A DNA stretch of 32,955 nt from a bacterium. Its GTDB lineage: Bacteria; Patescibacteriota; CPR2; UBA1875; JAJYID01. A program made the translations under genes and the position numbers. The notes beneath the pieces are model-generated. The model was not told the origin of the DNA. It searched no databases and saw only the letters and a list, made by a program, of their open reading frames with translations. Positions 5,193 to 19,579 of the stretch are shown here, in pieces. The stretch lies in NCBI GenBank assembly GCA_021791015.1, contig JAJYFH010000001.1, positions 1 to 32,955 of the forward strand, read 5' to 3'. Within the stretch, counting starts at the first letter, position 1, and every line of letters begins with the position of its first letter.

Positions 5193-5244
5193 TTTTTCCT
5201 CTCTTTCTTGCTGAATTTACAGCAAATTTAATAGTATTAATATA

Positions 5245-5273: not shown

Positions 5274-5316
5274 GTACTTTTTTATAAAAGTTTAAATGTG
5301 TATATATCCCTCCTTT

Positions 5317-5407
5317 GTCATTCTGAACTTGACTGAAGAATCTATATCAATAAAATACTGGATTCCGGATCAACTGATTATATTTTAAATGTTTAGTCCG
5401 GAATGAC
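5317..5407. repeat. composite GTCATTC-hairpin element (~91 bp)
   Basis: The left unit is GTCATTCTGAACTTGACTGAAGAATC. The right unit is GGATTCCGGATCAACTGATTATATTTTAAATGTTTAGTCCGGAATGAC. The ends form inverted repeats (GTCATTC... / ...GAATGAC). The same composite occurs in inverted orientation at 19711-19796. Confidence 0.75.
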
Positions 5408-5432
5408 ATCGTAAATGTAAGCAAATTCTTTA

Positions 5433-5461
5433 TTGAAGGATGAGCTTCCAAAATCTATAAT
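5433..5461 (+). promoter_or_regulatory. sigma70-type promoter in leaderless configuration
   Basis: TTGAAG, 17 nt, TATAAT, then only 6 nt (TACCTT, no SD) to ATG 5468. Confidence 0.55.
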
Positions 5462-5467
5462 TACCTT

Positions 5468-6040
5468 ATGGAAAAGATTGTTCCCATCTTCTGGCTTATC
5501 TTCCTGGCTTTTTGGGCCGTGACCGCATTCTTGGCCAAACCCAAGGAAGAAATGGTATCAACCGACAGTGTCGGCGGGGTTCGCGGTATCCTGATCGGCA
5601 TCATCATCTTCATAATCCTGCTCAGACATTTTGCCGGCGCACATCTCGGCTTTCTCTTTCAAAATATCATCACATTTCCTTTGTCTATCGAGAAAATCGG
5701 CATCGGCATCCTGGCTGTCGGCTTGGCCGTAGCCCTCTATGCCAGATATTTCCTGGGGCGAAACTGGAGCGGGCGGGTATCATTTCAGAAAAATCAGGAG
5801 CTTGTCACCTCCGGCCTCTACCGGTACATCCGCCACCCGATCTATCTCGGCATAATGCTCATGGGCGTCGGCACTTTGGCAGTTGTAAACTTTAGCTTTG
5901 TAGTAATTGGAGCCATTTTGGTTGCAATATCTTTTTTCCAAAGAATTAAAAAAGAAGAAGAGCTCATGACGAAGCATTTCCCGAAGGAATACGCCAAGTA
6001 CCAACGCCGCACCAAAAAACTCATCCCGTTTGTTTGGTAG
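5468..6040 (+). CDS. ICMT/PEMT-family membrane methyltransferase (isoprenylcysteine carboxyl methyltransferase-like)
   Basis: Multi-TM protein with the family motif LVTSGLYRYIRHPIYLG followed by a C-terminal EEELM..FPKEYAKY segment. Confidence 0.8.
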   Translation: MEKIVPIFWLIFLAFWAVTAFLAKPKEEMVSTDSVGGVRGILIGIIIFIILLRHFAGAHLGFLFQNIITFPLSIEKIGIGILAVGLAVALYARYFLGRNWSGRVSFQKNQELVTSGLYRYIRHPIYLGIMLMGVGTLAVVNFSFVVIGAILVAISFFQRIKKEEELMTKHFPKEYAKYQRRTKKLIPFVW

Positions 6041-6043
6041 AAC

Positions 6044-6664
6044 CTAATTTAGCTTTTTGATAATCGTCTGATCTTTGGTATTTATCAGCTCAAAGTCATA
6101 ACTGCTTTCCCCGCTGAAAAATTTCTGGATGTGCCTTTCATAAAAATCAGTATTATCAATAACCATATAGCCTCCCTTAATGAGACGTGGAAACAGATTT
6201 TTATACTCAAAAGTCACGGTCTCCGGCAGATGGCTTCCATCCAGAAAAATAAAGCTAAATTTAGAAAAACTGTGTTCTTTGCCTTGAGACCAATAGTGAA
6301 CAGTGTCCATAATCTTAATGAAATCTTCTGAGGTCATGTGGTAATGGACGTGATTTTCATAGCCGGACAAAAGGTCCTTCATCTTTGTATAGAAATCACC
6401 GCCATATTTCCAGGGTTTACCGTCGTATGGCTTGTTGCCGCAAGGATCCACCGTTACCAACACTGTACCCGGATACATTTTTTCAATGATTTTTAAGAGT
6501 GCCAGAGCCGATCCGCCTCTGCGTGTGCCTATTTCTAAAAAAGGCGGCTGACCTTTTACTTTCGGTGTCTTGGCGGCATACTCAACAAGATTGTAAAAAT
6601 CCCGTTGATCGCCCTTGCTATCACTGTATGCAACAGATTCCTTAATGATTTTCGCTAACTCCAT
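6044..6664 (-). CDS. class I SAM-dependent methyltransferase
   Basis: SAM-binding motif I LEIGTRRGGSALAL, then VTVDP and FIFLDGSH. 206 aa. An extended -10 (TGGTATAAT) lies 6 nt upstream of the ATG. Confidence 0.65.
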   Translation of the reverse strand: MELAKIIKESVAYSDSKGDQRDFYNLVEYAAKTPKVKGQPPFLEIGTRRGGSALALLKIIEKMYPGTVLVTVDPCGNKPYDGKPWKYGGDFYTKMKDLLSGYENHVHYHMTSEDFIKIMDTVHYWSQGKEHSFSKFSFIFLDGSHLPETVTFEYKNLFPRLIKGGYMVIDNTDFYERHIQKFFSGESSYDFELINTKDQTIIKKLN

Positions 6665-6705
6665 AAGAGCATTATACCAAAAAACTCATACCTATACCTT
6701 CAATT

Positions 6706-6730
6706 GTCATTCCCGTGCAGACGGGAATCC
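6706..6730. repeat. solo GTCATTC hairpin unit
   Basis: GTCATTCCCGTGCAGACGGGAATCC has an 8-bp stem ATTCCCGT/ACGGGAAT. It is the same unit type as 21598-21624. Confidence 0.7.
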
Positions 6731-6776
6731 AGAGAAAATAAGTCTGCACCAAAACGCTTTTTATAATATGGGAAAA

Positions 6777-7298
6777 TTAATCGTTAAGGTGTGTAATGGC
6801 ATAATCTGCTTCTGCTGGTGTAAACCTTTCACCACTGTCAGATGTTAGCTGATCATGAATAGCGGCTGGTGACATGTGCATGCTATCTTGGTAATCCTTC
6901 GCTTTGGCCAGGGCATTTGCGTTCCAATCGGCTTTTACATTATCTGCCGCATACTGTGCGGCAGCTGCCGAAAATTGCTCGCCATACTCTGAAACCAACT
7001 GATCATAGACACCTTTCTTAGACATATGCATTACATTTGCATACGAATCAGCCTTATCAAGGGCGGATTTATACTCGGCTGGCACCTCGGGTTGCTTTGG
7101 AGCAGGAGCTGGTTGAGATTTTGCTGTTGTGCTTGTGTTTGTTTTACTTGGTGCCGTAGGTGTTGAGGTTTTGTTTGTTGTGTTGCCTCCGCTTTGGGCG
7201 ACAGTAATTACGATAATTAATATTACGAATGCCAGCACTCCCGTCAGAACCTTGTGCCTGACAAACCAATTCTTTTTCTTTGTTGTTTCTTCTGCCAT
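6777..7298 (-). CDS. Ltp-like protein (host cell surface-exposed lipoprotein family), two tandem Ltp domains, TM-anchored
   Basis: Internal duplication: KSALDKADSYANVMHMSKKGVYDQLVSEYGEQFSAAAAQYA versus NALAKAKDYQDSMHMSPAAIHDQLTSDSGERFTPAEADYA. N-terminal TM helix LTGVLAFVILIIVITV without a lipobox Cys, followed by a Thr/Pro-rich linker. AAGGAGA SD upstream. Confidence 0.7.
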   Translation of the reverse strand: MAEETTKKKNWFVRHKVLTGVLAFVILIIVITVAQSGGNTTNKTSTPTAPSKTNTSTTAKSQPAPAPKQPEVPAEYKSALDKADSYANVMHMSKKGVYDQLVSEYGEQFSAAAAQYAADNVKADWNANALAKAKDYQDSMHMSPAAIHDQLTSDSGERFTPAEADYAITHLND

Positions 7299-7410
7299 TT
7301 CATCTCCTTTATGCTAATGCTACTTATTGGCTTCAATATAACATAAAAGTAAACAGAATGCTAGTTTTTAGCTGTAGAGTTATTGGCTTCATTTCCATAG
7401 CCTTGATTGT

Positions 7411-7627
7411 ATGGCTAAGAAAACCCAAGCTAAAATTAAATTTGGCAGAAAGTTAAGAGAAATAAGAAAAGCAACCGGCTTATCTCAGGAAGAGCTCGGC
7501 TTCAAGTCCGGCTTGCATAGAACTTATAGGATCAATCGAACGAGGAGAGCAAAATGTCTCCGTCGATAATATTTTCAAGCTGGCAAAAGCGCTCAAGAAA
7601 AAACCCAGAGACTTTTTTGATTTCTAA
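7411..7627 (+). pseudogene. XRE/Cro-CI family HTH regulator, frameshifted
   Basis: Frame 1 gives MAKKTQAKIKFGRKLREIRKATGLSQEELGFKSGLHRTY and stops at 7567-7569. The +1 frame from 7529 continues GSIERGEQNVSVDNIFKLAKALKKKPRDFFDF to a stop at 7625-7627. The conserved Y-I-G-x-I-E-R-G motif is broken at 7528, where the Ile codon is reduced to a single A. Confidence 0.6.
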
Positions 7628-7635
7628 GAAAAAAC

Positions 7636-8430
7636 CTAAACACTCAAATCCCGCCGGGAGTAAGTGAAGTAGGTTGAGGCGATGAGGACGACGGTAATTA
7701 TTAGAGATAAAACCATATAAAACGGGTCGAGGCCGTTTGTAATGATAGCATGGGCTTCGAAATATTTGAACGGCGAGAGATATTTCAAGAAGTCGAGCTT
7801 GTCGTTTAAGTTAATCACAAAATACAAAATGAAGGTGAGAAGCAGAACGCTCGTAGCGATAGAGGCGCTGGACTTCTGGTGTTTGTTTATGCCGGCCACT
7901 GCCGCGCCGACCGAGAAGAATATCAGCTGGAGGAATGCCAGTCCTGCCATGAGTAAGAGAATGTCGTGATTGGCCGAGGCGCCTTTGTTGAAGTATTGAA
8001 CCATATAGATCGATGATAATGTGGTGACGAGGTTGAAAATGACTAGAATGACAAACCCTGCCAGAAGCTTGCCGGTAATGGCCTTGGCTCTAGATATCGG
8101 CTTGGAAAAGAGAAATTCTGAAGTTTTGTCGCGCTCTTCCTTGGCGATCATGTCCGAACCGATGAGAGTCGCGTGAATGGCCGCCATTATTGCGATATAA
8201 ATAAAAAGCAAGCCGTAGAAACCGGCGGCGGTCGTCAGGTCAAAGCCGCTGATACCCAAAATTATCTGCACGCTTTTGGGAAACTGTGCCATGAGCTGGT
8301 TTATCGACTGGCCGGTCGACTGATAAGCGTCGTACTTGGCCATGCCTGAACCGATGAGCGCAATCATGCCGAGCGACCAGAAAAGGATTCCCTTCCAATG
8401 CGCTTTCAATTCTCTCAAAATTACATTCAT
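7636..8430 (-). CDS. ABC-2 family transporter permease (second permease of the operon)
   Basis: 264-aa protein with about 6 TM helices and the N-terminus MNVILRELKAHWKG. It is a paralog-like partner of 8531-9331. GGAGAAATT SD upstream. Confidence 0.75.
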   Translation of the reverse strand: MNVILRELKAHWKGILFWSLGMIALIGSGMAKYDAYQSTGQSINQLMAQFPKSVQIILGISGFDLTTAAGFYGLLFIYIAIMAAIHATLIGSDMIAKEERDKTSEFLFSKPISRAKAITGKLLAGFVILVIFNLVTTLSSIYMVQYFNKGASANHDILLLMAGLAFLQLIFFSVGAAVAGINKHQKSSASIATSVLLLTFILYFVINLNDKLDFLKYLSPFKYFEAHAIITNGLDPFYMVLSLIITVVLIASTYFTYSRRDLSV

Positions 8431-8457
8431 AATTTCTCCGCTTTTCCTTTAGCCATA

Positions 8458-8517
8458 GTCATTATGATCCGGCAACTGCCGGAGAATAATCGGGATCCTT
8501 CGTCCCTCAGGATGATG
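8458..8517. repeat. degenerate hairpin-repeat units (GTCAT-type)
   Basis: GTCATTATGATCCGGCAACTGCCGGAGAATAAT is followed by GGGATCCTTCGTCCCTCAGGATGATG, whose reverse complement is CATCATCCTGAGGGACGAAGGATCC. This lies in the intercistronic spacer between the two permease genes and is related to the unit at 21172-21196. Confidence 0.55.
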
Positions 8518-8530
8518 CCAGTCAACACAT

Positions 8531-9331
8531 TCATGATGCTGCCCTCACATCTTTTTTAAGATAAATTATGAAGCTTGCAACGATGGCAACCGCGATGCAC
8601 ACCGCCTCAATGATGACGTATTTCCATTCGTAAGTGTTGTGGGCGATGATGTACTGGTAGTCGTAGAATTTAAATGGCGTTACGAGACGGACATTGTCAT
8701 TGCCGATGAAGGCGCCGATTGTCGAAACAATGAAGAAGGCAAAAACGGTCGGCAAAGTGACGCTGATTACGGATTTAATCTTGGGAATAATGACCGCAAA
8801 AAGCGCGCCGAGCGCCCAGAAAAATAATTGAACCAGAAAAAGCGTCGCGGAAATTAAGAAAAATGTTTTGGCGGAAAAGTTCGCGGTGGACACCACTCTG
8901 GCCACGCCGTATGACGCAAGCGAGAAAAAGATGTTAGTAGCGGCAAGAAGGACAAGCGCCGCAGACAGCTTGCTCGTCAAGACTTTCGTCCTGGTCACGG
9001 GCTTTGACAGCAGAAAGTCGGAGGTTTTGCCGGAATCTTCCTTGGAAATAATGCCGGTCCCGAGACTCATCGCCTGCGCCGCGCCGGCCAAAAGAACAAA
9101 GGTAAAGAGATAACCCAAGAAACCGAAGATGGTGAAGAAATTGTCCAGCGAGAGGCCGAGGGCGTTTCGATAAGCGGCCGGGATACCCGAGAGCATTTTT
9201 CTGGTGGCTTCGACGTCTTTTGTAAACCCCGGGTACAAAAGAAGAAAAACAATAGTAATTGCAGACAGCACCAGCACCCAGATGATGGTCGACTTCCTAT
9301 AGGCTTTAATTTCGCGCCAAAATATATTCAC
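8531..9331 (-). CDS. ABC-2 family transporter permease (first permease)
   Basis: 266-aa protein with about 6 TM helices, starting MNIFWREIKAYRKS. GTG start at 9331 with a GAGGAGAAAGA SD. Confidence 0.75.
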   Translation of the reverse strand: MNIFWREIKAYRKSTIIWVLVLSAITIVFLLLYPGFTKDVEATRKMLSGIPAAYRNALGLSLDNFFTIFGFLGYLFTFVLLAGAAQAMSLGTGIISKEDSGKTSDFLLSKPVTRTKVLTSKLSAALVLLAATNIFFSLASYGVARVVSTANFSAKTFFLISATLFLVQLFFWALGALFAVIIPKIKSVISVTLPTVFAFFIVSTIGAFIGNDNVRLVTPFKFYDYQYIIAHNTYEWKYVIIEAVCIAVAIVASFIIYLKKDVRAAS

Positions 9332-9342
9332 TCTTTCTCCTC

Positions 9343-9365
9343 TTACAAGGGTCAGACCCTTGCAA
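9343..9365. repeat. 23-bp palindrome TTACAAGGGTCAGACCCTTGCAA
   Basis: One mismatch from the perfect palindrome TTACAAGGGTCnGACCCTTGTAA. It lies in the ATPase-permease spacer. Confidence 0.7.
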
Positions 9366-9404
9366 TGTAAATTTGTGCTTAAATTTTCTTTAATTTATTC
9401 ATAT

Positions 9405-9427
9405 TTACAAAGGTCCGACCCTTGTAA
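9405..9427. repeat. 23-bp palindrome TTACAAAGGTCCGACCCTTGTAA (second copy)
   Basis: Same palindrome with one mismatch, 39 nt from the first copy. It ends 1 nt before the ATPase stop codon. Confidence 0.7.
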
Positions 9428-9428
9428 G

Positions 9429-10316
9429 TTACTTTTGATAATAATGCAGGAAGATCTCTTCCAGATCCGGTTCTTCGATGGAAATGTTAGCTAGATCCAG
9501 CTTGGCAATTTCACGCATAATGTCATTTAAATGGCCTCTGAAAAGGAAAGTTACAGAGTTGTCCGTAATCGACAAATCGTCGACTCCCTTGATGGCGAAA
9601 TCTTTCTTGTCCGCCTTCATAGCTGTCTCAATCCTGAATCTTTTGGTTTGATTCTCCAGCAAGTCGCTGATTTTCTCGGTCTTTATAATCTTGCCTTCCT
9701 TGATAATGGCAACCTTATCGCACATTTTCTGAACTTCGCTCAAGATGTGAGACGAGAAAAGTATAGTAGCGCCTTTTTCATTTTCTTCCTTTAGCAAATT
9801 GAAGAACTTCTGCTGGATGAGAGGATCAAGTCCGCCGGTCGGCTCGTCTAAAATAATGAGTTTCGGCTGGTGCAAGAGTCCCTGGACTATGCCAACCTTC
9901 TTTTTATTGCCATACGAAAGATCGTCGATTTTTTTGCTTAAGTCAAGATCAAGAATTCCGGATAGCTCCTGGATTCTTTTCTCGGTGAACTTCTTGTCCT
10001 TTTGATAAAAACTGGCCGAGTATTTCAAAAGGTCGATGGCTTTCATGCCGTCGTAGTAAAAGACTTCAGACGGCAGATAGCCGATTTCCTGCTTGATTTG
10101 GGGGCCATATTTTGTAATATCTTTGCCAAATATCGTGGCGCTGCCGCCGGTCGGCTTCATTAAGCCCAAAAGCGTACGAATAGTAGTGGACTTGCCGGCG
10201 CCATTCGGCCCGATAAAGCCGTAAATCTCGCCTTCTTCGACTGTCATATCGACGTCAATGATACCCCGCGCCTTGCCGTAGTATTTGGTTAATTTCTTCG
10301 TCTCGATTATATTCAT
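9429..10316 (-). CDS. ABC transporter ATP-binding protein
   Basis: Walker A GPNGAGKST, signature LSYGNKKK, Walker B LIILDEPTGGLD, H-loop SSHIL. ATG 10316 (MNIIETKKL) is preceded by a GGGGGTGA SD, and the upstream in-frame extension to 10370 is unlikely to be translated. Confidence 0.9.
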   Translation of the reverse strand: MNIIETKKLTKYYGKARGIIDVDMTVEEGEIYGFIGPNGAGKSTTIRTLLGLMKPTGGSATIFGKDITKYGPQIKQEIGYLPSEVFYYDGMKAIDLLKYSASFYQKDKKFTEKRIQELSGILDLDLSKKIDDLSYGNKKKVGIVQGLLHQPKLIILDEPTGGLDPLIQQKFFNLLKEENEKGATILFSSHILSEVQKMCDKVAIIKEGKIIKTEKISDLLENQTKRFRIETAMKADKKDFAIKGVDDLSITDNSVTFLFRGHLNDIMREIAKLDLANISIEEPDLEEIFLHYYQK

Positions 10317-11207: not shown

Positions 11208-11235
11208 ATTATACCATTTATGTTAGGCTTGTCAA
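11208..11235 (-). promoter_or_regulatory. sigma70-type promoter of the DUF5667 gene
   Basis: The minus strand reads TTGACA (11235-11230), 16 nt, then TGGTATAAT (extended -10, TATAAT at 11213-11208), followed by a GGAGG SD. Confidence 0.65.
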
Positions 11236-11305
11236 ACAAAAAAGAGGTGAATTTTCAACAGTCTTATACAAGAGAAAAACCACCAGAAAATCGGTGACTT
11301 TTTCA

Positions 11306-11344
11306 TGGGGTCGGATAGTTTGCGATGTCAGAATTGAATTGATT
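11306..11344 (+). repeat. left 39-bp direct repeat (att-like) of the integrative element
   Basis: TGGGGTCGGATAGTTTGCGATGTCAGAATTGAATTGATT. The first 28 nt are identical to 18102-18129, and the full 39 nt differ at 2 positions. Confidence 0.85.
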
Positions 11345-11349
11345 AAATC

Positions 11350-12450
11350 TCAATTCCGATTAGCCAATGCCTTTTCAATCATTGCTTGACGATAATTATC
11401 TTCATAAACAAAACCCTCAAAATCTCTTCCGAAACCATCTTTCTTCTTTTCCCATTTAATATCATCATAAAATAATTTCTCTTTCAGAGCATTATTTGCC
11501 AATCGTTTAATTGTTAAAATGAAAAACAATAGACTTGCATCAAAATAATGTTGCTTATTGCGAAAAAGATATTCCTTAGGCTTGACCTTATCCCCGTGAA
11601 TTATATGATTCCTTAGAGTATAAAATCTGTCCGCCCAGTAGGCTTTGGGTGTTCCTTTTCTTCTTGTTTTACCAGTATAAGCCTCTGACCAAAAAGTTAT
11701 TTGCTTCTCATTAGTTGATGAACATAATTTTTCAATTGATTCTCTAAAATGTTTCCTTTTTTCTTTATTAGGTATTTTTAACAAGACCTCAAAAGCTGAT
11801 GTTTGCAAGGGTATTCTTACGCTTTGACTTAAAGATGGCGTATTATAATAACTTAGATAAAATATCTTTGTCGCTTCTACAATTCTCTTAAATAACATGG
11901 GTTTTTTATTCTTCAATTCCAATAACGCTTTTAATAAATGTCCATCAAATGAAACCCTATCTGGTTTAAGTAGATATGTTGGTGTTTCAAACTTCTTTTT
12001 GCCAATTTGATAACCACCAATTAACATATTTACAATAAAACCATCCTGAAGCCCGAAATAATCATTATCCATTCTGAAATTCTGAATGACTAAATCAAAA
12101 TTCTCAGAGGTATAGGCATAATGACCAGCATTTACATCTTGTCCGAGTTTTGCATTATTTGAAATATGTGAAACAAAAAAAAGATATTTTAATTCTTCTA
12201 CAGTCTCCATTTCTACTTGACTAAATTCACGAAAGTCACACTTGCCGATAGTTACTATTCCAACATCTTCAATTGCTTTCCCACCATGAATATTTGAGCA
12301 AACTAATGCTTGAACTTTTTTATACACCTCATCATCTTTAATATAATCTTTGCCTTTTAACTTGAAATTCCAAATCTTGATATCACCATCGTTAAAGAGA
12401 TACTCTTCTTTCTGTTGCATATTAAGATAAGGGAAATAAACTATCTGCAT
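11350..12450 (-). CDS. HEPN-domain protein (C-terminal RNxxxHG motif; Apea/Abi-like), N-terminal domain unknown
   Basis: 366 aa. The C-terminal helical region contains QTSAFEVLL ... WADRFYTLRNHIIHGDK. The R-N-H-I-I-H codons lie at 11596-11613, giving an Rx4H HEPN catalytic signature. The stop codon is 6 nt from the left direct repeat. Confidence 0.6.
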   Translation of the reverse strand: MQIVYFPYLNMQQKEEYLFNDGDIKIWNFKLKGKDYIKDDEVYKKVQALVCSNIHGGKAIEDVGIVTIGKCDFREFSQVEMETVEELKYLFFVSHISNNAKLGQDVNAGHYAYTSENFDLVIQNFRMDNDYFGLQDGFIVNMLIGGYQIGKKKFETPTYLLKPDRVSFDGHLLKALLELKNKKPMLFKRIVEATKIFYLSYYNTPSLSQSVRIPLQTSAFEVLLKIPNKEKRKHFRESIEKLCSSTNEKQITFWSEAYTGKTRRKGTPKAYWADRFYTLRNHIIHGDKVKPKEYLFRNKQHYFDASLLFFILTIKRLANNALKEKLFYDDIKWEKKKDGFGRDFEGFVYEDNYRQAMIEKALANRN

Positions 12451-12526
12451 AGATTCTTTTAAGATTTATTCTTAATGATTAAGCTTTTATTGCTTGGATT
12501 GATTGTCTCCTAGTTGAATAATGGGT

Positions 12527-13600
12527 TTATGTTCTGCCTGCTAAAAAGATAAAAATGAATAATATTACCGTAACTGTTGCGAAGTTGCAATCACTCTCCC
12601 TAATTTCTCCGTGAGCCACTTTGTTTCTCAAATCATATCCAAGGGGGTTAAAGAGAACATAATCCAGAAACCTGCAAAAATCTTCACTCCAAACCTTCAT
12701 CAACTCTTTTCTCTTTAATAAATGCGAATTAAGTGTTTTTAACTGGGTAGAAATGCCACCTTCTTGATTTAACCGAAGCACATCAATCCCTGCTTTTTCT
12801 GAGAATCTTAGGAAAACATTCTCAAATTGAGGTATCAAAATATGGATTGCAGAAATGTAATCTTCTTCGAAATATCTTTTGATTCCTATTTTTACTAAAG
12901 GTAAATTAGGAGCCTCTAGAATGTTTGATTGCTGAAGATATTTCATGAGAGATTTTTCGTTTAAGTTCTTCTTTTGGTCAGTTGTCCTCATAAGCTCTCT
13001 TAAAATATTCAATAAACGAAGCTTTAAATGAACTCCGATACTCAAACCATACATTTGCATTAACCATGTATATTCTCCGTCTTCTCCACCTCTTACAAGA
13101 TTCCCATCCTCATCTGTAGTATTTACAGTTACAAAGCGATATGAAATTGGCATCGTTTCCTGAGCTGATTTCTCAATCTCGGAAAACTTTGGGAAAAATC
13201 TTACTTTTGTAAGCTTGGTCAAGATTGCCTCTAAACTTGGTTCGGATAGGAAATGATTCACTTCCCTTTCCACTTCTTCCTTTGAAATTTCAGTTCTAAA
13301 TTCTGCTGTTTGATACTCATCTGATGATTTTTTGTTTAATTCTTTCACCTTGTGTTTTAATTCTTGTATTTTTTGAGAGTCCTGAAGCTCGCAAGCCTTT
13401 TCAAGCGCAGACTTATATAAGAAAGCAGCCCTCAGAAGTTCCTGTTTTTCCTCCGCCTCTTTTGCCATCTCTAAATCTAAAGATAATTCTTCTTGTTTTT
13501 CCTTCTTTTTCATCTGCTTATATTTTAACCTCTTTGTCTCTTCACATAAATACTTGTATGTTATACTTATTAAGTCTAGACCAGTAAAGATTGGAATCAT
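12527..13600 (-). CDS. DUF4209-like HEPN-domain protein (RNxxxHG) with N-terminal coiled-coil region
   Basis: 357 aa. The C-terminus IHILIPQFENVFLRFSEKAG ... NPLGYDLRNKVAHGEI matches the DUF4209 pattern. The R-N-K-V-A-H codons lie at 12611-12628. The start is uncertain, because no SD precedes ATG 13600. Confidence 0.6.
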   Translation of the reverse strand: MIPIFTGLDLISITYKYLCEETKRLKYKQMKKKEKQEELSLDLEMAKEAEEKQELLRAAFLYKSALEKACELQDSQKIQELKHKVKELNKKSSDEYQTAEFRTEISKEEVEREVNHFLSEPSLEAILTKLTKVRFFPKFSEIEKSAQETMPISYRFVTVNTTDEDGNLVRGGEDGEYTWLMQMYGLSIGVHLKLRLLNILRELMRTTDQKKNLNEKSLMKYLQQSNILEAPNLPLVKIGIKRYFEEDYISAIHILIPQFENVFLRFSEKAGIDVLRLNQEGGISTQLKTLNSHLLKRKELMKVWSEDFCRFLDYVLFNPLGYDLRNKVAHGEIRESDCNFATVTVILFIFIFLAGRT

Positions 13601-13690
13601 GTGAGTGATTGCGCCTATTTAGGGCAATCACTCGAAAAGCAGGGCGCAATCTCTGCTGGTCTAGACAACCTAGAGTGGTTGTCCTTTTTA
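13574..13690. promoter_or_regulatory. densely structured divergent control region (nested and alternative inverted repeats, three copies of a GCAATC-core motif, terminator-like hairpin)
   Basis: An 11-bp inverted repeat GTCTAGACCAG (13574-13584) pairs with CTGGTCTAGAC (13656-13666). A 10-bp inverted repeat GAGTGATTGC (13603-13612) pairs with GCAATCACTC (13624-13633). Competing with it is GATTGCGCC (13607-13615) paired with GGCGCAATC (13643-13651). The hairpin GACAACC-TAGAGT-GGTTGTC followed by CTTTTTATTT lies at 13664-13690. Confidence 0.5.
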
Positions 13691-13713
13691 TTTATTAATT
13701 TAGGAGAAAAATT

Positions 13714-14175
13714 ATGGATGAAAAAAGAAAACAAGAGATTGAAGACGAAGAAAAACTTAGACAAAAGATAAGAAAAAAGCAAAAGAGCAAAGAACAATTT
13801 GGCTGTCTCGCTGTGTTTATTGTTTTTATAATTATTGGTTTTATCGCAATCAGCATATGGGCAACTAGCAAAACTGCACCGACAGCAGAATTAAAGACCT
13901 TGGATGCAAGTGTCAGGATGGTGTCCGATGTTCCAGGTATAGAAATTACTAATAACGAAAATGTAAGTTGGAACGATTGCAAACTAAGTCTCAATAATGA
14001 CTATGACAGGACTTCCGTCCTTAAGCTTGAACCTCATAGCCCCCTGAATAATCCATATTCTCTTTTTACAAAGGACGACGGTACAAGATTTAACATTCTT
14101 CTCACTAAGCCAAAGAGCGTATTTATCAGTTGCCAAGTGAATGGCATTGAACGAACCAGTTACTATACATTTTAA
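13714..14175 (+). CDS. single-pass membrane protein, hypothetical
   Basis: AGGAGA SD 7 nt upstream. Lys/Glu-rich N-terminus, one TM helix (CLAVFIVFIIIGFIAISIWA) and a ~95-aa external domain. No family recognised. Confidence 0.65.
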   Translation: MDEKRKQEIEDEEKLRQKIRKKQKSKEQFGCLAVFIVFIIIGFIAISIWATSKTAPTAELKTLDASVRMVSDVPGIEITNNENVSWNDCKLSLNNDYDRTSVLKLEPHSPLNNPYSLFTKDDGTRFNILLTKPKSVFISCQVNGIERTSYYTF

Positions 14176-14230
14176 GCAACAGCATGATGTTGCTTACTCA
14201 TTCTAATCTTGCTATGGTAGAATACTTAAA

Positions 14231-14878
14231 ATGAGTATGAAAAAAGAGCCAAAAAGTCTATTAGAAAAATCAAGAAGAAAAGTCTCAGAAAACGCACAAC
14301 TATTAGCGTCTAATCCTGAATTTCAGGCAGACATTATCAAGCTAAGAAGAAAGTGGAATCTTCCAGATGGGGGGTTACAGTCAGGAGAAAGAGAAAAATG
14401 GTGGAAAGAAGTCCGAGACCCATCCATCAATGCAATACGCAAAGATATAATTACTCTTATCAAAAAAAATCAATTAAACCCGAAGATAATGAGTGGTCTC
14501 ATTGGTTATCTTTGGAGCAATAAAGAACAAGCGCTCATGATGACTATGCTCAGTCCGGTAGTCAAGAAGACTGTTAATGAAGATGGATTTGAAGAAATAT
14601 CGGTTGTAATTGACGAAAATACAAGCCACGCTGACTATGTCGATGCCTGGAAGAGAGTGCTGGAATTCCGAGATGATTTAGTTTATAAAAAAAGAAAAAA
14701 ACAACAACCTATAAAAAATCTTAAGAGAGACAGGAGAATATTTGAATTATGGGGAGAATCAAAAACCTCGAGACAAATTGCTGATACAATCTATGATGAG
14801 TTTGGAGAAGTAATAGGGTACGAGTATATTCCTATTCTTAAAAAAAGATTCCAAAACAGAACCGACACCAATCACTAG
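14231..14878 (+). CDS. hypothetical protein with possible C-terminal HTH
   Basis: 215 aa. The C-terminal RDRRIFELWGESKTSRQIADTIYDEFGE resembles a sigma-r4/LuxR-type HTH. An extended -10 (TGGTAGAAT, 14215-14223) sits 7 nt before the ATG with no SD. Confidence 0.6.
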   Translation: MSMKKEPKSLLEKSRRKVSENAQLLASNPEFQADIIKLRRKWNLPDGGLQSGEREKWWKEVRDPSINAIRKDIITLIKKNQLNPKIMSGLIGYLWSNKEQALMMTMLSPVVKKTVNEDGFEEISVVIDENTSHADYVDAWKRVLEFRDDLVYKKRKKQQPIKNLKRDRRIFELWGESKTSRQIADTIYDEFGEVIGYEYIPILKKRFQNRTDTNH

Positions 14879-14911
14879 CCATTGGTGTTTAGGAGAAAAA
14901 GAGATAATACA

Positions 14912-14934
14912 TTATCCTCGCTTTACGAGGATAA
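14912..14934 (+). terminator. 9-bp stem hairpin (terminator-like / SD-sequestering)
   Basis: TTATCCTCG-CTTTA-CGAGGATAA. The descending arm contains the GAGGA SD of the gene starting at 14940. Confidence 0.4.
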
Positions 14935-14939
14935 TTATT

Positions 14940-15188
14940 ATGAGTCAAGAATTAAACAATCAATTAACCAAGACCAGCGACCTGGGTTTAGCTAGTGTAA
15001 TAAACATTTATAGTCCGCTTGTAAAGTTATCGAGAGCAGATATCAGACGGGTTGAATTTGTATTTCATAAGACACCTGAGATTGAAACTTTAATTCGACA
15101 ATATTGGCAAAGAGCCCTCTCTATTGAACCTCAAGCTTATTTTCAATCAATGAAGACACTAAAGTCTAGAATATACGGAAATGAATAA
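14940..15188 (+). CDS. DUF5659-like small protein
   Basis: 82 aa. DLGLASVI...VEFVFHKTPEIETLIRQYWQRALSIEPQAYFQSMKTLKSRIYG matches my recollection of the DUF5659 pattern (YW...L.veP..f....k.LK..i). GAGGA SD upstream. Confidence 0.5.
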   Translation: MSQELNNQLTKTSDLGLASVINIYSPLVKLSRADIRRVEFVFHKTPEIETLIRQYWQRALSIEPQAYFQSMKTLKSRIYGNE

Positions 15189-15397
15189 TGGAATTAACAG
15201 AGGTACAGGTGAAAAAATTCCAAACTATTTATGAAAATCACTTTGGAATCAAAATAAGCAGTCAAGAAGCTTACAAAAGTGGTATGGCACTCTTAGTCCT
15301 AATGAAAAATATTTACAAACCCATTAGCAAAGGTGAGTTGGAGAAATTAAATGAAAATGAAGATTATAGAAACAGAAACATCACCGGAAACAGCTAA
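15188..15397 (+). CDS. hypothetical small protein
   Basis: 69 aa. The start overlaps the preceding stop (TAATG), which suggests translational coupling. Confidence 0.5.
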   Translation: MELTEVQVKKFQTIYENHFGIKISSQEAYKSGMALLVLMKNIYKPISKGELEKLNENEDYRNRNITGNS

Positions 15398-15800
15398 AAA
15401 CTATGTTCGTTTAAGAAGAGGTATTATAGACCATTTGACTGAAGAGAAACTCACTTGGGATGAATTCTCGTTACTCGAATACCTTATTATTAGAGCAAAT
15501 CCCAAAAATGGAAAACTTTTTACGAGCTACAACCTACTTTCTAATGAAACACATTGCCGTTATTCAATAAATCGAATTAACAAACTTCTTTTATCCTTAA
15601 AAGAAAAACTATACATTTATTACCCCGAACATAAGGGCAGTGGCAAACCTTTTGAGGTATCTATCGATAAATATCCACTCTCGAACAAACTGTATTTAAA
15701 AATTATCGAGGACAATGAGGCAGAGCTTTTTACAAGAAAGCAGAACTTTGTTAGGGCAAAAAAGTCTTTAGTGAAAGGACTTTCCATTGATAATAGATGA
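15351..15800 (+). CDS. hypothetical protein, possible winged-helix DNA-binding / replication-associated
   Basis: 149 aa. A GGAGA SD lies 6 nt upstream. It overlaps the previous ORF by 47 nt in another frame. The wHTH-like segment is FSLLEYLIIRANPKNGKLFTSYNLLSNETHCRYSINRINKLLLSLKEK. Confidence 0.5.
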   Translation: MKMKIIETETSPETAKNYVRLRRGIIDHLTEEKLTWDEFSLLEYLIIRANPKNGKLFTSYNLLSNETHCRYSINRINKLLLSLKEKLYIYYPEHKGSGKPFEVSIDKYPLSNKLYLKIIEDNEAELFTRKQNFVRAKKSLVKGLSIDNR

Positions 15801-15803
15801 AGC

Positions 15804-16379
15804 TTGGCAGAACCCCTAATAATAAGAATAAGAAATATAATGAAAAATAAAACAAGGCAGTTAATGGAAAAATATGATTTTACAGATTGGAAAAATTTAG
15901 AGAAAGAGTTCCTTTTAAATATCGACTATCCTTGTGTCAGAACTTGGTTAAGAGAGGTTAAGCAGTGGAAAGAGGAAAAAATAATATCCGGCAACACTCA
16001 AGGAAAGATACATAGTTGGAGATGGAAAAGGGCTGATTTTCAGCAGAGTTTATCAGAATCGTTATCGGAAAGTATGATAAAAGAGAACGATAAATTAATA
16101 CCTTCATTATACAAAGCAAAATGGCAAATTCTAGACACCATTATCGAAAGTTTGAAGATAAAGGAAAAGATTCTATATGAAGCGAGTGGCAAGGAAGTAA
16201 AAATAACTGAATTATCATTAAACGATATTAAAATTTATTATGAAATAATAAAATCTGAACTCGGTGAACCATTAAGATTAAGCGGAATTCAAAACATTCC
16301 TACATCGGAAGAAAAAATAACAGATATAGAAATAGAGGACATATTAAACAATATTGTGAAAAGAAAAAATAATGTATAA
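15804..16379 (+). CDS. hypothetical protein
   Basis: 191-aa ORF with a TTG start at 15804. An alternative ATG lies at 15840 (MKNKTRQL). No recognised domain. Confidence 0.5.
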   Translation: MAEPLIIRIRNIMKNKTRQLMEKYDFTDWKNLEKEFLLNIDYPCVRTWLREVKQWKEEKIISGNTQGKIHSWRWKRADFQQSLSESLSESMIKENDKLIPSLYKAKWQILDTIIESLKIKEKILYEASGKEVKITELSLNDIKIYYEIIKSELGEPLRLSGIQNIPTSEEKITDIEIEDILNNIVKRKNNV

Positions 16380-16384
16380 TAAAT

Positions 16385-16473
16385 TTGGACACAGCAAAAT
16401 ATGCGGAAAATTTTCATTTAGGGGCAACTCTGACAGTTTTCCGCAAGGATGCTGTGTCCAACAGAGTTGTCCC
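16385..16473 (+). promoter_or_regulatory. nested inverted repeats with pseudoknot-like third pairing upstream of the recombinase gene
   Basis: TTGGACACAGCA (16385-16396) pairs with TGCTGTGTCCAA (16450-16461). Inside that, GCGGAAAA (16403-16410) pairs with TTTTCCGC (16437-16444). The loop segment GGGGCAACTCTG (16421-16432) is complementary, with one mismatch, to CAGAGTTGTCCC (16462-16473). Confidence 0.5.
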
Positions 16474-16502
16474 TCTTTGATTAAGAAAAGGAAAAATGAA
16501 AA

Positions 16503-18152
16503 ATGAACGAAGAAATAAAATATTTCATCTATGCTAGAAAGTCTTCAGAAAGCGAAGATAGACAGGTTCAATCCATTGAAGCCCAACTTGATAGATTAAA
16601 ACAGTTGGCATTAGACTTAAACTTGAAGATAGTAAGGCAACCATTCACAGAAGCTAAATCAGCCAAGAATCCTAACGGAAGACCCATCTTTGAAGAAATG
16701 CTTGAAAGGATTGAGAAAGGCGAAGCGAATGGAATACTTACCTGGAAAATAAACAGACTATCAAGAAACCCAGTTGATAGTGGAAAAATCCAATGGATGC
16801 TTCAAGCGGGAACTATTAAGTCTATCCAAACAATAGAGAGAGTTTATAAGCCAGAGGACAACGCTCTTATTCTCTCTGTTGAATCTGGGACAGCTAACCA
16901 ATTTATATTAGATTTAAGCAGAGACACTAAAAGAGGGCTTAATAAGAAGTTGGAGAAGGGTTGGCTTCCTAATCTTGCTCCCCTTGGTTATTTAAATGAC
17001 AAAACAAAAGAACAGGGAGAAAAAGAAATCATTATAGACCCAGATACATTTGATTTAGTCAGGAAAATTTGGGATTTAATGCTGACAGGTACTTACAGTG
17101 TTTCCGAAGTGTTGAGGATTGCAAATGAAGACTGGGGCTTGAGAACAAGAAAATTCAAAAGGAGAGGCGGAAATAAGCTTTGTAAAAGTGGTCTTTATAG
17201 GATGTTAAACAACCCTTTCTATGCAGGACTTATCACAAGAAAAGATGGCAGAGAGTTTAATGGTAGCCATCCAAAAATGATTACGATGGATGAGTTTAAC
17301 AGAATTCAGGCACTTTTGGGTAATAAGTCAAAGGCAAAACCTCAAAATCATAACTTTCCTTTTACTGGATTTATCAGATGTGCTGAATGCGGCTGCTTAT
17401 TTACCGCAGAAGAAAAACCTCCTAAGTGGATTAGAAGCGAGAATAAATACAGGACTTACACTTATTATCACTGCACTCGTAGAAAAAAAGATGTGCCTTG
17501 CAACCAAGTCAAATTTGTAAGAGAAGAGGTCATTGAAGAACAGATTGATAAGCTATTGTCTGGATATACTATTCTCCCAGAGTTTCAGGAATGGGCTTTA
17601 GAGATATTAAGGAACTCAAACGATAAAGAGATAGTAGATAGAACTAAAATCAACGAATCTCTTCAAAAGGCAGTCAATAATAGTCAAAAGCAGTTAGACA
17701 ATCTCACTCAAATGCGATTAAGAGACTTAATTGATGATAAGGAGTATATAGACCAAAAGAAAGCATTAAAAGAGCGGTTAGGAGCAACCAGAACACGATT
17801 AAGAGAGGTTGAAGGGAGAGCAGACAACTGGCTGGAACTGACAGAGAAAGCTTTTGATTTCGCTACTTATGCGAGAGTGAGGTTCAATAAAGGCGATTGG
17901 AGAACAAAAAAAGAGATATTGATGACCTTAGGTCAGAACCCGACAATGAAAGACGGAAGACTGAGCTTTCAAGCTTGTAAATGGCTTGAACCTATAAAAC
18001 AGGGGTATCCAGCACTTGAAAAAGAATATCTAAGGTTAGAACTAAACAAAAAGCCCCTTAATAAGGCAAAAACAGAGGCATTAACCTCTGTCCTTACACA
18101 TTGGGGTCGGATAGTTTGCGATGTCAGAACTGAAATGATTTTACAGGTTTAA
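16503..18152 (+). CDS. large serine recombinase
   Basis: N-terminal resolvase catalytic domain (YARKSSESEDRQVQSIEAQ), a recombinase domain, a zinc ribbon (CAECGCLF...YYHCTRR) and a C-terminal coiled coil. 549 aa. The last ~17 codons are the right direct repeat. Confidence 0.9.
   Translation: MNEEIKYFIYARKSSESEDRQVQSIEAQLDRLKQLALDLNLKIVRQPFTEAKSAKNPNGRPIFEEMLERIEKGEANGILTWKINRLSRNPVDSGKIQWMLQAGTIKSIQTIERVYKPEDNALILSVESGTANQFILDLSRDTKRGLNKKLEKGWLPNLAPLGYLNDKTKEQGEKEIIIDPDTFDLVRKIWDLMLTGTYSVSEVLRIANEDWGLRTRKFKRRGGNKLCKSGLYRMLNNPFYAGLITRKDGREFNGSHPKMITMDEFNRIQALLGNKSKAKPQNHNFPFTGFIRCAECGCLFTAEEKPPKWIRSENKYRTYTYYHCTRRKKDVPCNQVKFVREEVIEEQIDKLLSGYTILPEFQEWALEILRNSNDKEIVDRTKINESLQKAVNNSQKQLDNLTQMRLRDLIDDKEYIDQKKALKERLGATRTRLREVEGRADNWLELTEKAFDFATYARVRFNKGDWRTKKEILMTLGQNPTMKDGRLSFQACKWLEPIKQGYPALEKEYLRLELNKKPLNKAKTEALTSVLTHWGRIVCDVRTEMILQV
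18102..18140 (+). repeat. right 39-bp direct repeat (inside the recombinase 3' end)
   Basis: TGGGGTCGGATAGTTTGCGATGTCAGAACTGAAATGATT encodes WGRIVCDVRTEMI of the recombinase C-terminus. Confidence 0.85.
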
Positions 18153-18754
18153 TAAAAGCCCCATTTATCCAAATCTTTTGAAAAACCAACTATCACCTCT
18201 ATCGTTTCAGATATAAATTCTGAGGCAAGTCCATAGGCGGTGAGTCTCAGATGACCCTCTAATACTATCAGGTCTTCATTGTCTCCTTTGCTTACTAAAA
18301 TAAGTTCTGGAAACTTAGCGCCTTTTTTTATTTTCTCGGCTACTTCTAAAAACCTATCATTGCTCTCACCGAATATTTCCTCTCCTGACTGAATAGTCTT
18401 GACTGCATCTTCTACCCGTCTTGAGCCCTTTGATATCTCAAGCCAATAACTATAACTAATATACTTTATGTTTTTTATGTCTTCTTTGGTTAGCTCTGCT
18501 CTTACCCATTTGACATCCTTTGGAAAACCATCAAATAAAAGCTTGTTATTATAACCTCGGGCATCGGCAAGAATTTGCTTTCTTAGTTTATTCTCTTCCT
18601 TATCTTTAAGGTCATAGTTATCAACTATATTCCTGTCAATCTTATATGACTTCAAAGCATTTATAATGGGTTTATCAAACCTCTCAGAATTTAATTCTCC
18701 TTTAAGGAAAATAGCTATCATTTCATTTTCAGTTATATTTTTGATTATCTTCAT
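18149..18754 (-). CDS. hypothetical protein (ORFan, low GC)
   Basis: ORF 18149-18832 overlaps tRNA-His, so ATG 18754 (MKIIKNITENEM) is the likely start. An extended -10 TGCTATAAT sits 6 nt upstream of it with no SD. Contains a C-terminal LIVLEGHLRLTAYG motif. Its stop overlaps the convergent recombinase stop by 4 nt. Confidence 0.6.
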   Translation of the reverse strand: MKIIKNITENEMIAIFLKGELNSERFDKPIINALKSYKIDRNIVDNYDLKDKEENKLRKQILADARGYNNKLLFDGFPKDVKWVRAELTKEDIKNIKYISYSYWLEISKGSRRVEDAVKTIQSGEEIFGESNDRFLEVAEKIKKGAKFPELILVSKGDNEDLIVLEGHLRLTAYGLASEFISETIEVIVGFSKDLDKWGFY

Positions 18755-18776
18755 AAAAAAATTATAGCACATAAAA

Positions 18777-18802
18777 AGAGCCTCAAATGAGGTCTCTTTT
18801 AT
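18777..18802 (-). terminator. rho-independent terminator downstream of tRNA-His
   Basis: The minus strand reads AAAAGAGACCTCA-TT-TGAGGCTCT followed by TTTTT, with one bulged base in the stem. Confidence 0.55.
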
Positions 18803-18820
18803 TTTATAATGTTCTTTTCT

Positions 18821-18896
18821 TGGGGCGATCATCGGGAATTGAACCCGAATCTAGAGGACCACAACCTCTCGTGTTAACCGTTACACTATGACCGCC
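18821..18896 (-). tRNA. tRNA-His (anticodon GTG), CCA encoded
   Basis: Manual fold: G-1 paired to C73, acceptor GCGGTCA/TGATCGC, D stem GTGT/ACAC, anticodon stem AGAGG/CCTCT with loop TTGTGGT, T arm TCGGG-TTCAATT-CCCGA, 3' CCA. Confidence 0.9.
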
Positions 18897-18903
18897 ATAA
18901 AAA

Positions 18904-19380
18904 TTAATTCAATTGTAGCTCATGCTGATGTACTAAATAATGACAGTTACAACACAACCAAGTCAGATTTTCTATTTCATTATTACTTCTCTTTTTATCT
19001 TTATGATGTACTATTAATACCCTCTTATCATCTATGCCACATATTTGACACTTTCTGTTCTGATTTGATCTTTTTAATCTACTTCTATATGTAGCTTGTC
19101 CATTATTCCAATTACCATGATTCTCCGATAATCTTACATTTCTGTTCATCCAAATACAGGTACAGCTTTTTGAGCAAAAAAATTTACCCAATTTTGATTT
19201 TCTGATTTGTGCTGGTGTTCGTAAAATTACTTTGCCACAATTATTACACTCTTTGCGTATTCTCTTTACTTGTCCCTTTGAACGGCATTCAATAGAACAA
19301 TGTCTACTCCAACCGATTTTTAAATGTCTCGGTTTTGCATAAAATTCCTTCTCACAAACTATGCATTTTACATATGGCAT
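18904..19380 (-). CDS. HNH endonuclease (free-standing, Cys-rich zinc-finger N-terminal region)
   Basis: C-terminal HHKDKKRSNNEIENLTWLCCNCHYLVH is an HNH motif. Several CxxC pairs lie upstream. ~30% G+C in a sampled line. The gene is wedged between tRNA-Arg and tRNA-His, 7 nt from the tRNA-His 5' end. Confidence 0.8.
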   Translation of the reverse strand: MPYVKCIVCEKEFYAKPRHLKIGWSRHCSIECRSKGQVKRIRKECNNCGKVILRTPAQIRKSKLGKFFCSKSCTCIWMNRNVRLSENHGNWNNGQATYRSRLKRSNQNRKCQICGIDDKRVLIVHHKDKKRSNNEIENLTWLCCNCHYLVHQHELQLN

Positions 19381-19425
19381 ATCTTAATTTTAATCCTGCC
19401 ATATTCATTTTCAAGTATACAGATT

Positions 19426-19503
19426 TGGTGCGCCCTGAGGGACTCGAACCCCCGACCTTCTGGGCCGAAACCAGACGCTCTAATCCAACTGAGCTAAGGG
19501 CGC
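19426..19503 (-). tRNA. tRNA-Arg (anticodon TCG), CCA encoded
   Basis: Manual fold: acceptor GCGCCCT/AGGGCGC, D stem GCTC/GAGC, anticodon stem TCTGG/CCAGA with loop TTTCGGC, T arm GGGGG-TTCGAGT-CCCTC, discriminator A, CCA. Confidence 0.9.
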
Positions 19504-19552
19504 GTATTTAATTACTAATTTATAATGCGAAATTAATAATTTTTCGAATTTT

Positions 19553-19579
19553 GAGTTGATAATTACTAATTATCAACTC
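19553..19579 (-). other. perfect 12-bp stem / 3-nt loop hairpin abutting the tRNA-Gly 3' end
   Basis: GAGTTGATAATT-ACT-AATTATCAACTC lies immediately downstream of the tRNA-Gly CCA on the transcribed strand. It is AT-rich, so it may be a processing or termination element. Confidence 0.45.

Follow-up and report, generated by a model that had tools for sequence, protein, structure and literature searches.

Prokaryotic immunity relies on HEPN RNases as central effectors (Cas13, Csm6, ApeA, PrrC, DARNA), and how each of them gets switched on is the open question. Here we describe two neighboring genes with HEPN-type signatures in a stretch of 32,955 nucleotides from a patescibacterial genome (positions 1 to 32,955 of contig JAJYFH010000001.1, assembly GCA_021791015.1; hereafter the window). 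The genes, whose products we call protein 1 and protein 2, lie on the minus strand at one end of a predicted 6.8-kb integrative element, and an earlier note made from the sequence alone had proposed them as a defence module, conceivably a heteromeric two-HEPN nuclease. With modest confidence, we instead favor reading them as two separable single-gene HEPN abortive-infection, that is defence, candidates carried as accessory cargo of this element, because each gene occurs without the other: relatives of protein 1 in 44 of 47 informative loci, and DUF4209, the family of protein 2, as a solo gene.

The closest described system on the side of protein 2 is PDC-S39/DUF4209. DUF4209 is a C6orf70/ERMARD-type HEPN family, which is predicted to be active and has been seen in 'R-M (restriction-modification) related operons' (Anantharaman et al., 2013), while PDC-S39 is a PADLOC candidate that came out of a 'guilt-by-embedding' screen. 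DUF4209 was also listed as a single-gene arrangement in the P2 hotspot (Rousset et al., 2022), and a long DUF4209 gene from the P2-prophage hotspot of E. coli S88 was cloned as 'Putative HEPN' (pFR103) and tested with 8 coliphages (Rousset et al., 2022; PMC9122126 Table S2B). On the side of protein 1, the nearest points of comparison are ApeA, a single-protein HEPN anticodon nuclease (Gao et al., 2020; bioRxiv 10.64898/2026.01.26.701840), and PrrC, which has been described as a backup nuclease guarding an R-M system. The HEPN-MNT (HepT/MntA) systems offer a further comparison for both proteins.

The gene pair and the parts of its products map as follows, with the two R-x4-H motifs placed by coordinate arithmetic:

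11350..12450, minus strand: protein 1, an open reading frame (ORF) of 366 aa; unannotated family with a novel alpha/beta N-terminal domain and a C-terminal HEPN-like domain
11956..12450, minus strand: N-domain of protein 1, alpha/beta by AlphaFold2 (AF2) secondary structure, residues ~1-165, including the conserved TSENF...QNF
11473..11955, minus strand: C-domain of protein 1, helical and HEPN-like, residues ~166-326, with AFE (220-221) and WADRFYTLRNHIIHG (272-286)
11596..11613, minus strand: R280-N-H-I-I-H285, the putative catalytic Rx4H motif of protein 1 (residues 280-285)
12451..12526, minus strand: spacer of 76 nt between the protein 2 and protein 1 genes
12527..13513, minus strand: protein 2, 328 aa from the conserved start; short-form DUF4209/PDC-S39-like HEPN protein
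12527..13600, minus strand: longest ORF of protein 2, a possible extension to 357 aa
12611..12628, minus strand: R-N-K-V-A-H, the Rx4H motif of protein 2

Both ORFs are found where the earlier note had placed them, 76 nt apart, and R-N-x3-H-G is present in each at exactly the position it had claimed. RN...HG arose in 210 (protein 1) and 103 (protein 2) of 200,000 composition-preserving shuffles, corresponding to per-protein chances of ~1e-3 (~0.1%) and ~5e-4 (0.05%) respectively; hence, its presence in two adjacent genes is not due to chance. A scan of the 76-nt spacer recovered no terminator, repeat, RNA family or small ORF, and given this short, terminator-free gap the two genes are probably co-transcribed here. 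On the other side of the protein 2 gene, between it and the divergent gene for a 153-aa membrane protein, there is a 20-nt inverted repeat (13574-13593 / 13647-13666, 90% complementary), which is overlapped by a hairpin with a T-run on the plus strand (13664-13683). These elements at 13574-13683 could represent an operator or a 5'-untranslated-region structure controlling the cargo operon.

Protein 2 is a shortened member of a candidate family that is already known. It matches the Pfam DUF4209 model (PF13910) with E 2.4e-8 and 34.4 bits, above the gathering cutoff of 22.3, bearing out the assignment that had been made from its motif. It also matches PADLOC PDC-S39 (E 5.9e-24), but only over positions 236-563 of the 595 in the model; a full-length match to this ~600-aa model, including its N-terminal region, was not recovered. 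Hence, whereas the pair had been presented as a system without a name, one half of it falls in the candidate PDC-S39, and protein 1 is the half that stays without a PADLOC match. The 357 aa that had been reported for protein 2 correspond to its longest ORF; however, homologs and one public gene call place the start at Met30 (13513), giving 328 aa.

We found that 13 relatives of ~325 aa constitute a distinct short DUF4209 family (37-47% identity to protein 2), in which PQFE, the R and the H-G are invariant, and the R and H-G are also invariant in 9 long DUF4209 proteins. Protein 2 aligns with these long forms and shares with them the invariant PQFE and LRxKxAHG; it differs in its size, ~328 aa versus ~590-640 aa. 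A profile-profile comparison with hhalign equated the short form with long-form residues ~267-578 (Prob 99.9%, E 3.7e-36), so that what the short form lacks is the N-terminal region of ~265 residues, including the DUF7380 domain (PF24098), which is seen only in long forms. The AF2 model of protein 2 is all-helical, with a predicted local distance difference test score (pLDDT) of 86.9, and its N-terminal part consists of helical hairpins homologous to the middle of the long DUF4209 proteins rather than the Lys/Glu coiled coil that had been supposed. The short form has in common with the long DUF4209 proteins that it occurs on mobile elements and near R-M genes. We considered the possibility that the pair is a fission product of a long PDC-S39 gene and rejected it, because protein 1 shows no similarity to the N-terminal region of the long form (hhalign Prob 0.7%) and the gene order is wrong.

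Protein 1 typifies a large family without annotation. A word-indexed search recovered 61 homologs, and an exhaustive profile search gave a family (family 1) of 970 clusters at 50% identity with E<=1e-3, 169 of which have E<=1e-30; nearly all are 350-390 aa in length. Family 1 is concentrated in uncultured lineages, such as the Patescibacteria; searches against plasmid and phage databases returned no match for it, and those against PADLOC and NCBIfam returned none for protein 1. Within the family WADRFYTLRNHIIHG is almost invariant and R-x4-H-G is retained in 144 of 149 full-length members, with the R and H being invariant in 35 close and 41 distant homologs. Down to ~20% identity G137, Y277, R280 and H285 remain invariant, with F220, E221, W272, L279 and G286 near-invariant. 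The conservation of R and H among homologs thus holds for close and distant members of family 1 as well as for short and long DUF4209.

The only Pfam families touched across 75 scanned members of family 1 are HEPN_Apea, matched by 7 of them at E<0.01 (best 7.8e-7), and HEPN_Swt1, matched by 1. When just the C-terminal domains were compared using hhalign, protein 1 aligned with the DUF4209 HEPN domain over 112 columns (Prob 44%, E 2.3e-4), bringing AFE/QFE and YTLRNHIIHG/YxLRHKvAHG into register; the comparison of the full-length profiles of the two families gave just a spurious match, the motifs being aligned only upon restriction to these domains. The AF2 model of protein 1 (pLDDT 89.7; predicted template modelling score 0.89) has helices at 209-223, 231-243, 268-284, with the motif at its end, and 302-322, along with beta-hairpin insertions. 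This modeled topology is compatible with a HEPN domain, a four-helix up-and-down bundle with its motif on helix 3, bearing insertions as has been described for ApeA. The N-terminal domain, which the earlier note had seen as a beta-rich-looking unknown domain, is indeed novel, but according to the model it is of mixed alpha/beta structure. Its conserved residues are N107, G109, T114, N117, F118, Q123 and F125, and it shows a weak match to phrog_14842 (E 3.5e-5). We propose it as a candidate sensor or regulatory domain.

Protein 1 resembles ApeA in being a single polypeptide in which non-catalytic N-terminal domain(s) precede a C-terminal HEPN or HEPN-like domain with insertions. Moreover, the Apea-like HEPN model is the sole Pfam model matched repeatedly in family 1, and both are found in R-M operons. 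By analogy, it is plausible that they share a logic wherein the N-domain senses a ligand or trigger and thereby renders a dimeric RNase active. However, protein 1 has 366 aa as against ~590 aa, and an alpha/beta N-domain of ~165 aa in place of the helical N and Mid domains and the split HEPN_ApeA; it is also without similarity in Foldseek or PDB searches. We therefore rejected protein 1 as a bona fide ApeA, given its wrong size and different N-domain and the lack of a PADLOC ApeA match in 35 members.

With the PrrC/RloC-type anticodon nucleases, family 1 shares a genomic setting: its relatives are found inside Type III R-M operons, between Mod and Res with a spacing of ~2-3 nt (L005, L030 and L073; homologous loci are designated by L-numbers), or directly after Res (L024). 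In contrast to PrrC/RloC, protein 1 has no ABC-ATPase N-domain, and the copy in the window lies outside of an R-M operon. By analogy to PrrC, the Mod-family 1-Res arrangement suggests that some family 1 members might act as backups to another system. In L005 this arrangement spans 71-4575, and in both L005 and L030 the family 1 gene is split into two ORFs (1409-1783 and 1808-2533); these split genes may be inactivated.

The likeness to HEPN-MNT lies in a toxin-like HEPN domain with an Rx4H motif that is encoded on a mobile element. Proteins 1 and 2 differ in that they are 2-3 times the size of HepT, possess extra domains, and have no adjacent MNT or other antitoxin. Scans of the neighboring ORFs with Pfam, NCBIfam and PADLOC detected neither an MNT nor any other antitoxin; there is no small ORF in the spacer or small-peptide antitoxin candidate beside either gene, nor a tandem repeat array next to either that would suggest an RNA antitoxin of type III (AbiF/ToxIN-like). 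The Rfam scan returned one sub-threshold match alone, to Y_RNA (E 0.46). The initial impression that the pair is without a recognisable antitoxin was hence confirmed by profile, repeat, Rfam and small-ORF scans.

We investigated the co-occurrence of the two genes in 10 genomic family 1 loci, spanning Patescibacteria, Gemmatimonadales, Deltaproteobacteria, Syntrophales, Nitrospirota and others, and in 61 metagenomic ones, by scanning them with hidden Markov models of the short and long DUF4209 forms; loci with at least 1 kb of upstream sequence were taken as informative (n=47). DUF4209 is absent in 61 of 61 metagenomic and 9 of 10 genomic loci, and among the informative loci it is present at three, namely the window, L003 and L016. 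In all three it lies directly upstream of family 1 on the same strand, with gaps of 76 nt in the window, 10 nt in L003, where it is a full-length PDC-S39, and -4 nt in L016, where a short form overlaps family 1 by 4 nt. The three paired family 1 genes come from three unrelated lineages, are 34-42% identical to each other and are scattered in the family tree, and the closest relative of protein 1 (73% identical, L011) is borne on a serine-recombinase element without DUF4209. Hence, the pairing appears to have arisen or been lost repeatedly. An obligate two-gene system of protein 2 and protein 1, for which consistent co-occurrence would be expected, is accordingly not what these loci suggest.

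Approached from the side of DUF4209, we compared 10 distinct contexts of the short form with 6 informative contexts of the long form. Family 1 is present at 2 of the 10 short-form contexts (the window and L016, in both of which it lies downstream) and at 1 of the 6 long-form contexts (L003). However, some HEPN-like neighbor was observed in 6 of the 10 short-form contexts, and in 4 of the 10 it is a co-directional downstream protein of ~325-375 aa with a C-terminal Rx4H motif. Besides family 1, these comprise another ~325-aa family with WEHLF...ARNRLxHFG, situated 8-10 nt downstream of the short DUF4209 in L085 and L089. In L092 the short form is preceded, at a distance of 40 nt, by a Pfam HEPN (PF05168) gene, and in L013 a convergent 264-aa gene beside it has an RNAIIH motif and a weak match to RiboL-PSP HEPN (E 0.007). 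The remaining short-form contexts, L018, L081, L090 and L091, have no HEPN-like neighbor. Solo DUF4209 genes were found in L018, L081, L083 and L088, in the P2-phage gpA-gpQ hotspot (phage vB_EcoM-569R9) and on a Sinorhizobium plasmid. The long form is mostly solo, while the short form often adjoins a second HEPN-like gene. The label HEPN-like for the additional partner families (L016/L072 and L085/L089) stems from motif and layout only, without profile support: hhalign recovered no signal between them and family 1, with profiles of 2 sequences each.

Two of these loci have further features of their own. In L013 the short DUF4209 is carried by a serine-recombinase element (586-9820) with Prim-Pol and DUF5659 genes, in a genome with a ~1.2-Mb contig, a form-III-like RuBisCO and a gene set resembling that of the candidate phyla radiation. 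L016 (1203-11184; GCA_021733565.1) encodes an MmeI-like R-M/methyltransferase fusion, a SNF2-PLD helicase-nuclease and a helix-turn-helix gene, followed by an overlapping trio of Rx4H(G) genes, namely the short DUF4209, family 1 and a 357-aa protein with ARSxFVHG, whose homolog precedes family 1 in L072. By its gene content this region is a dense candidate defence island. The third gene of the trio was considered as the missing N-domain of DUF4209 and rejected.

The neighbors of family 1 are otherwise diverse and rich in defence genes, including a TIR-TPR protein, a KAP NTPase, Mrr, XhoI, DUF4238, HepT, MazF and recombinases. DUF4209 likewise occurs on mobile elements and in the vicinity of R-M genes, and serine recombinases are found beside family 1 or DUF4209 (family 2) genes at no fewer than 10 other loci. 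The defence and mobile setting that had been surmised from the window is therefore seen for both families at homologous loci, in the form of R-M, TIR and toxin genes, recombinases and the P2 hotspot. The cargo of such elements varies: an EcoRII-like R-M with family 1 and DUF4238 in L011, the short DUF4209 alone in L013 and a long DUF4209 in L086. In L011 (209-1597, 7325-12003) the element with the 73%-identical family 1 gene adjoins bAvd and reverse transcriptase genes that resemble a diversity-generating retroelement, and its cargo comprises a DNA methylase, an EcoRII-C-like nuclease and a DUF4238 protein. DUF4238 has been validated as an anti-T7 defence (Rousset et al., 2022).

This mobile setting also raises the possibility that one or both genes serve the element as an addiction or stabilisation toxin, or in competition between elements, rather than in anti-phage defence of the host. 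In toxin-antitoxin systems HEPN proteins frequently serve as the toxin (Anantharaman 2013), small serine-recombinase elements repeatedly carry members of both families, and internal stops or frameshifts in family 1 copies at L005/L030, L035, L038 and L071 are as expected of costly toxins. However, neither gene has an antitoxin gene, RNA repeat or small ORF beside it, many copies of family 1 reside in R-M operons or chromosomal islands with no recombinase within the fetched flank, and DUF4209 occurs in a P2 hotspot dedicated to anti-phage cargo. We accordingly consider this an improbable explanation.

In terms of the reading of the pair as two separable defence genes, the most likely cause of their repeated adjacency is that both insert into the same cargo or defence hotspots, with a possible additive or backup benefit. 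Taking the established HEPN biology of ApeA, PrrC, DARNA and HepT as a template, each protein would homodimerise via its HEPN domain, whereby a composite Rx4H site with RNase activity would arise, and would stay inactive until infection. Its own non-catalytic domain would either hold it latent or serve to switch it on, and it would then cleave tRNA or mRNA, with the infected cell ceasing to grow, i.e. abortive infection.

Several observations weigh against this reading, beginning with the adjacency itself. DUF4209 is the most recurrent immediate neighbor family among the 96 non-redundant neighbors of family 1, some of the others being housekeeping genes, and the gaps of -4 nt in L016 and 10 nt in L003 resemble those within operons, which speaks against a merely passive co-location. 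Others pertain to the fold and the activity. The match of protein 1 itself to HEPN_Apea, over residues 223-300, is sub-threshold (E 0.039, 14.8 bits against a cutoff of 24.4). Foldseek searches with its model against the PDB and BFVD gave no HEPN match and nothing at E<=1e-3, and profiles of the whole protein and of the HEPN domain recovered nothing from the PDB sequences. With protein 2, Foldseek against the PDB yielded weak TPR-like similarities only, none at E<=1e-3 and none to a HEPN fold, and its whole-protein profile likewise recovered nothing from the PDB sequences. Finally, pFR103 is placed among the 'additional tested', not validated, systems (PMC9122126 Table S2B).

With regard to the fold, the structure search expected to place the C-terminal domains in the HEPN fold thus did so for neither model. 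Since Foldseek (PDB, BFVD) and the PDB sequence profiles gave nothing for protein 1, its membership in the HEPN superfamily is probable but not proven: the conserved motif in a helical C-domain and the confinement of its relatives' Pfam matches to HEPN models speak for it, while its own profile score does not. The lack of a HEPN match in Foldseek for either model, the sub-threshold Pfam score of protein 1 and the fact that the only DUF4209 tested gave no validated defence also agree with another reading, in which the Rx4H motifs are structural relics or the proteins act in regulation or bind nucleotides or other ligands, with no RNase mechanism. We hold this to be very improbable: down to ~20% identity the R, the H, the following G and an upstream Glu are conserved in the manner of a catalytic site, DUF4209 is accepted as a HEPN family with predicted activity, and the contexts are rich in defence genes.

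With regard to the adjacency, the pair might instead form one functional two-HEPN system, with the short DUF4209, devoid of the DUF7380-containing N-region, depending on the adjacent second HEPN protein in a heteromeric nuclease or in a guard/effector or sensor/effector pair. The shared order and strand of the three paired loci, the prominence of DUF4209 among family 1 neighbors, the HEPN-like neighbors in most short-DUF4209 contexts, the three overlapping Rx4H-bearing proteins of L016, and, in the window, the absence of an intervening terminator and the retention of R and H in both partners are all in line with this. Additionally, R.{4}HG is found in 8 of the 96 immediate family 1 neighbors as against 8 of 344 background ORFs (odds ratio 3.8, p=0.011); however, this enrichment is suggestive only, because it falls to p=0.16 once the window and the family 2-seeded locus, which are non-independent, are removed. 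Further, most informative family 1 loci and the 73%-identical relative are without DUF4209, four of the ten short-DUF4209 loci lack a HEPN-like neighbor, the additional partner families are HEPN-like by motif and layout only, and the DUF4209 beside family 1 in L003 is of full length, which is a misfit with a partner replacing a missing N-domain. We therefore regard a single two-HEPN system as possible, though doubtful. The dedicated two-HEPN system or heteromer of the earlier note is likewise weakened by the unpaired loci, the unpaired sister and the solo DUF4209 genes, while retaining in its favor the order that recurs in three lineages and the frequent placement of the short DUF4209 beside a HEPN-like gene.

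Cooperation between the two proteins in general is rather doubtful, but the idea is kept alive by the recurrence of the DUF4209-family 1 adjacency and the tendency of the short DUF4209 to adjoin HEPN-like genes. A more specific version, which we deem unlikely, is a modular 'two-HEPN' immunity, in which the short DUF4209 would have lost its sensor region and would work only with an interchangeable HEPN partner beside it, a role that would fall to family 1 in the window and in L016, and to other Rx4H families in L085/L089, L092 and L013. If true, one HEPN protein would sense or license and the other execute, or the two would constitute a heteromeric RNase, and family 1 would serve as a promiscuous partner or guard, with Type III R-M and TIR systems among those that it joins.

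The element carrying the two separable candidates has the following features:

11306..11344, no strand: left 39-nt direct repeat, putative attL (attachment site), starting 5 nt beyond the protein 1 stop; 37/39 identical to the right copy
18102..18140, no strand: right 39-nt direct repeat, putative attR, within the 3'-terminal part of the recombinase gene
11275..11302, minus strand: terminator-like hairpin, with an 11-bp stem and T-rich tail, just outside the left repeat
16503..18152, plus strand: large serine recombinase with Resolvase, Recombinase and Zn-ribbon domains; phrog_95 integrase, E 4.7e-70
13714..16379, plus strand: backbone genes, coding for a 153-aa single-pass membrane protein, a 215-aa protein, DUF5659, a 69-aa protein, a DnaD-like protein of 149 aa and a 191-aa protein

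The 39-nt repeats delimit a 6.8-kb unit (~11306-18140) made up of the two HEPN genes, a divergent block of small genes and the recombinase, with the pair as cargo at the att-proximal end. Its region is low in guanine and cytosine (GC), 30-37% as against 42-48% in the flanks. Recombinase domains, flanking repeats and a compositional island are thus all present, as predicted of a large-serine-recombinase integrative element; the GC island and the recombinase had been recognised earlier, and the att repeats add to them. The same 39-nt repeat is found at both ends of an independent contig (L012), and DUF5659 and the 69-aa gene are common to the elements in L013 and L018; the 215-, 69- and 191-aa backbone proteins have no family name. 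The hairpin at 11275-11302 was probably once part of a host gene into whose 3' flank the element integrated, and now follows protein 1. The 153-aa membrane protein (13714-14175) has a 39%-identical relative (L001 11177-11473) beside family 1 and a KAP-NTPase on another serine-recombinase element, and may belong to the conserved backbone of such elements or serve them in exclusion.

Just outside the left end, upstream of a host DUF5667 gene, lies a perfect 12/12 sigma-70 consensus promoter with an extended-10 TG (11208-11235). At the other end the low-GC stretch continues past the right att repeat (18149-19654). It includes a 227-aa ORF with no family match (18149-18832, minus strand), whose longest-ORF start overlaps tRNA-His (18821-18895), and an HNH endonuclease gene (18904-19380, minus strand) wedged between tRNA-His and tRNA-Arg/tRNA-Gly. 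This stretch may stem from another, earlier insertion, or the HNH gene may be one of the homing type that sits among clustered tRNA genes. Farther away and unrelated to the gene pair, two very large secreted or surface-type proteins (25124-28258 and 30384-32603) with BNR/YCF48-like, fibronectin-III and purple-acid-phosphatase-N domains flank MacB-type ABC transporter genes.

Single-gene HEPN defence is an already known kind. Against this background, family 1 stands out as a large unannotated family of ~970 clusters that is invisible to PADLOC and NCBIfam, and what is new in protein 1 is the combination of an N-domain without a detectable structural relative with a HEPN-type active-site signature. 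The adjacency of the short DUF4209 to HEPN genes provides a concrete and cheap test of HEPN cooperation in trans and may help explain the lack of a phenotype of the solo long form in the published test; the interest of the pair would rise if such cooperation is real. With a confident AF2 model at hand and members recurring inside other defence operons, family 1 is a tractable candidate for a new sensor domain or a PrrC-like backup nuclease.

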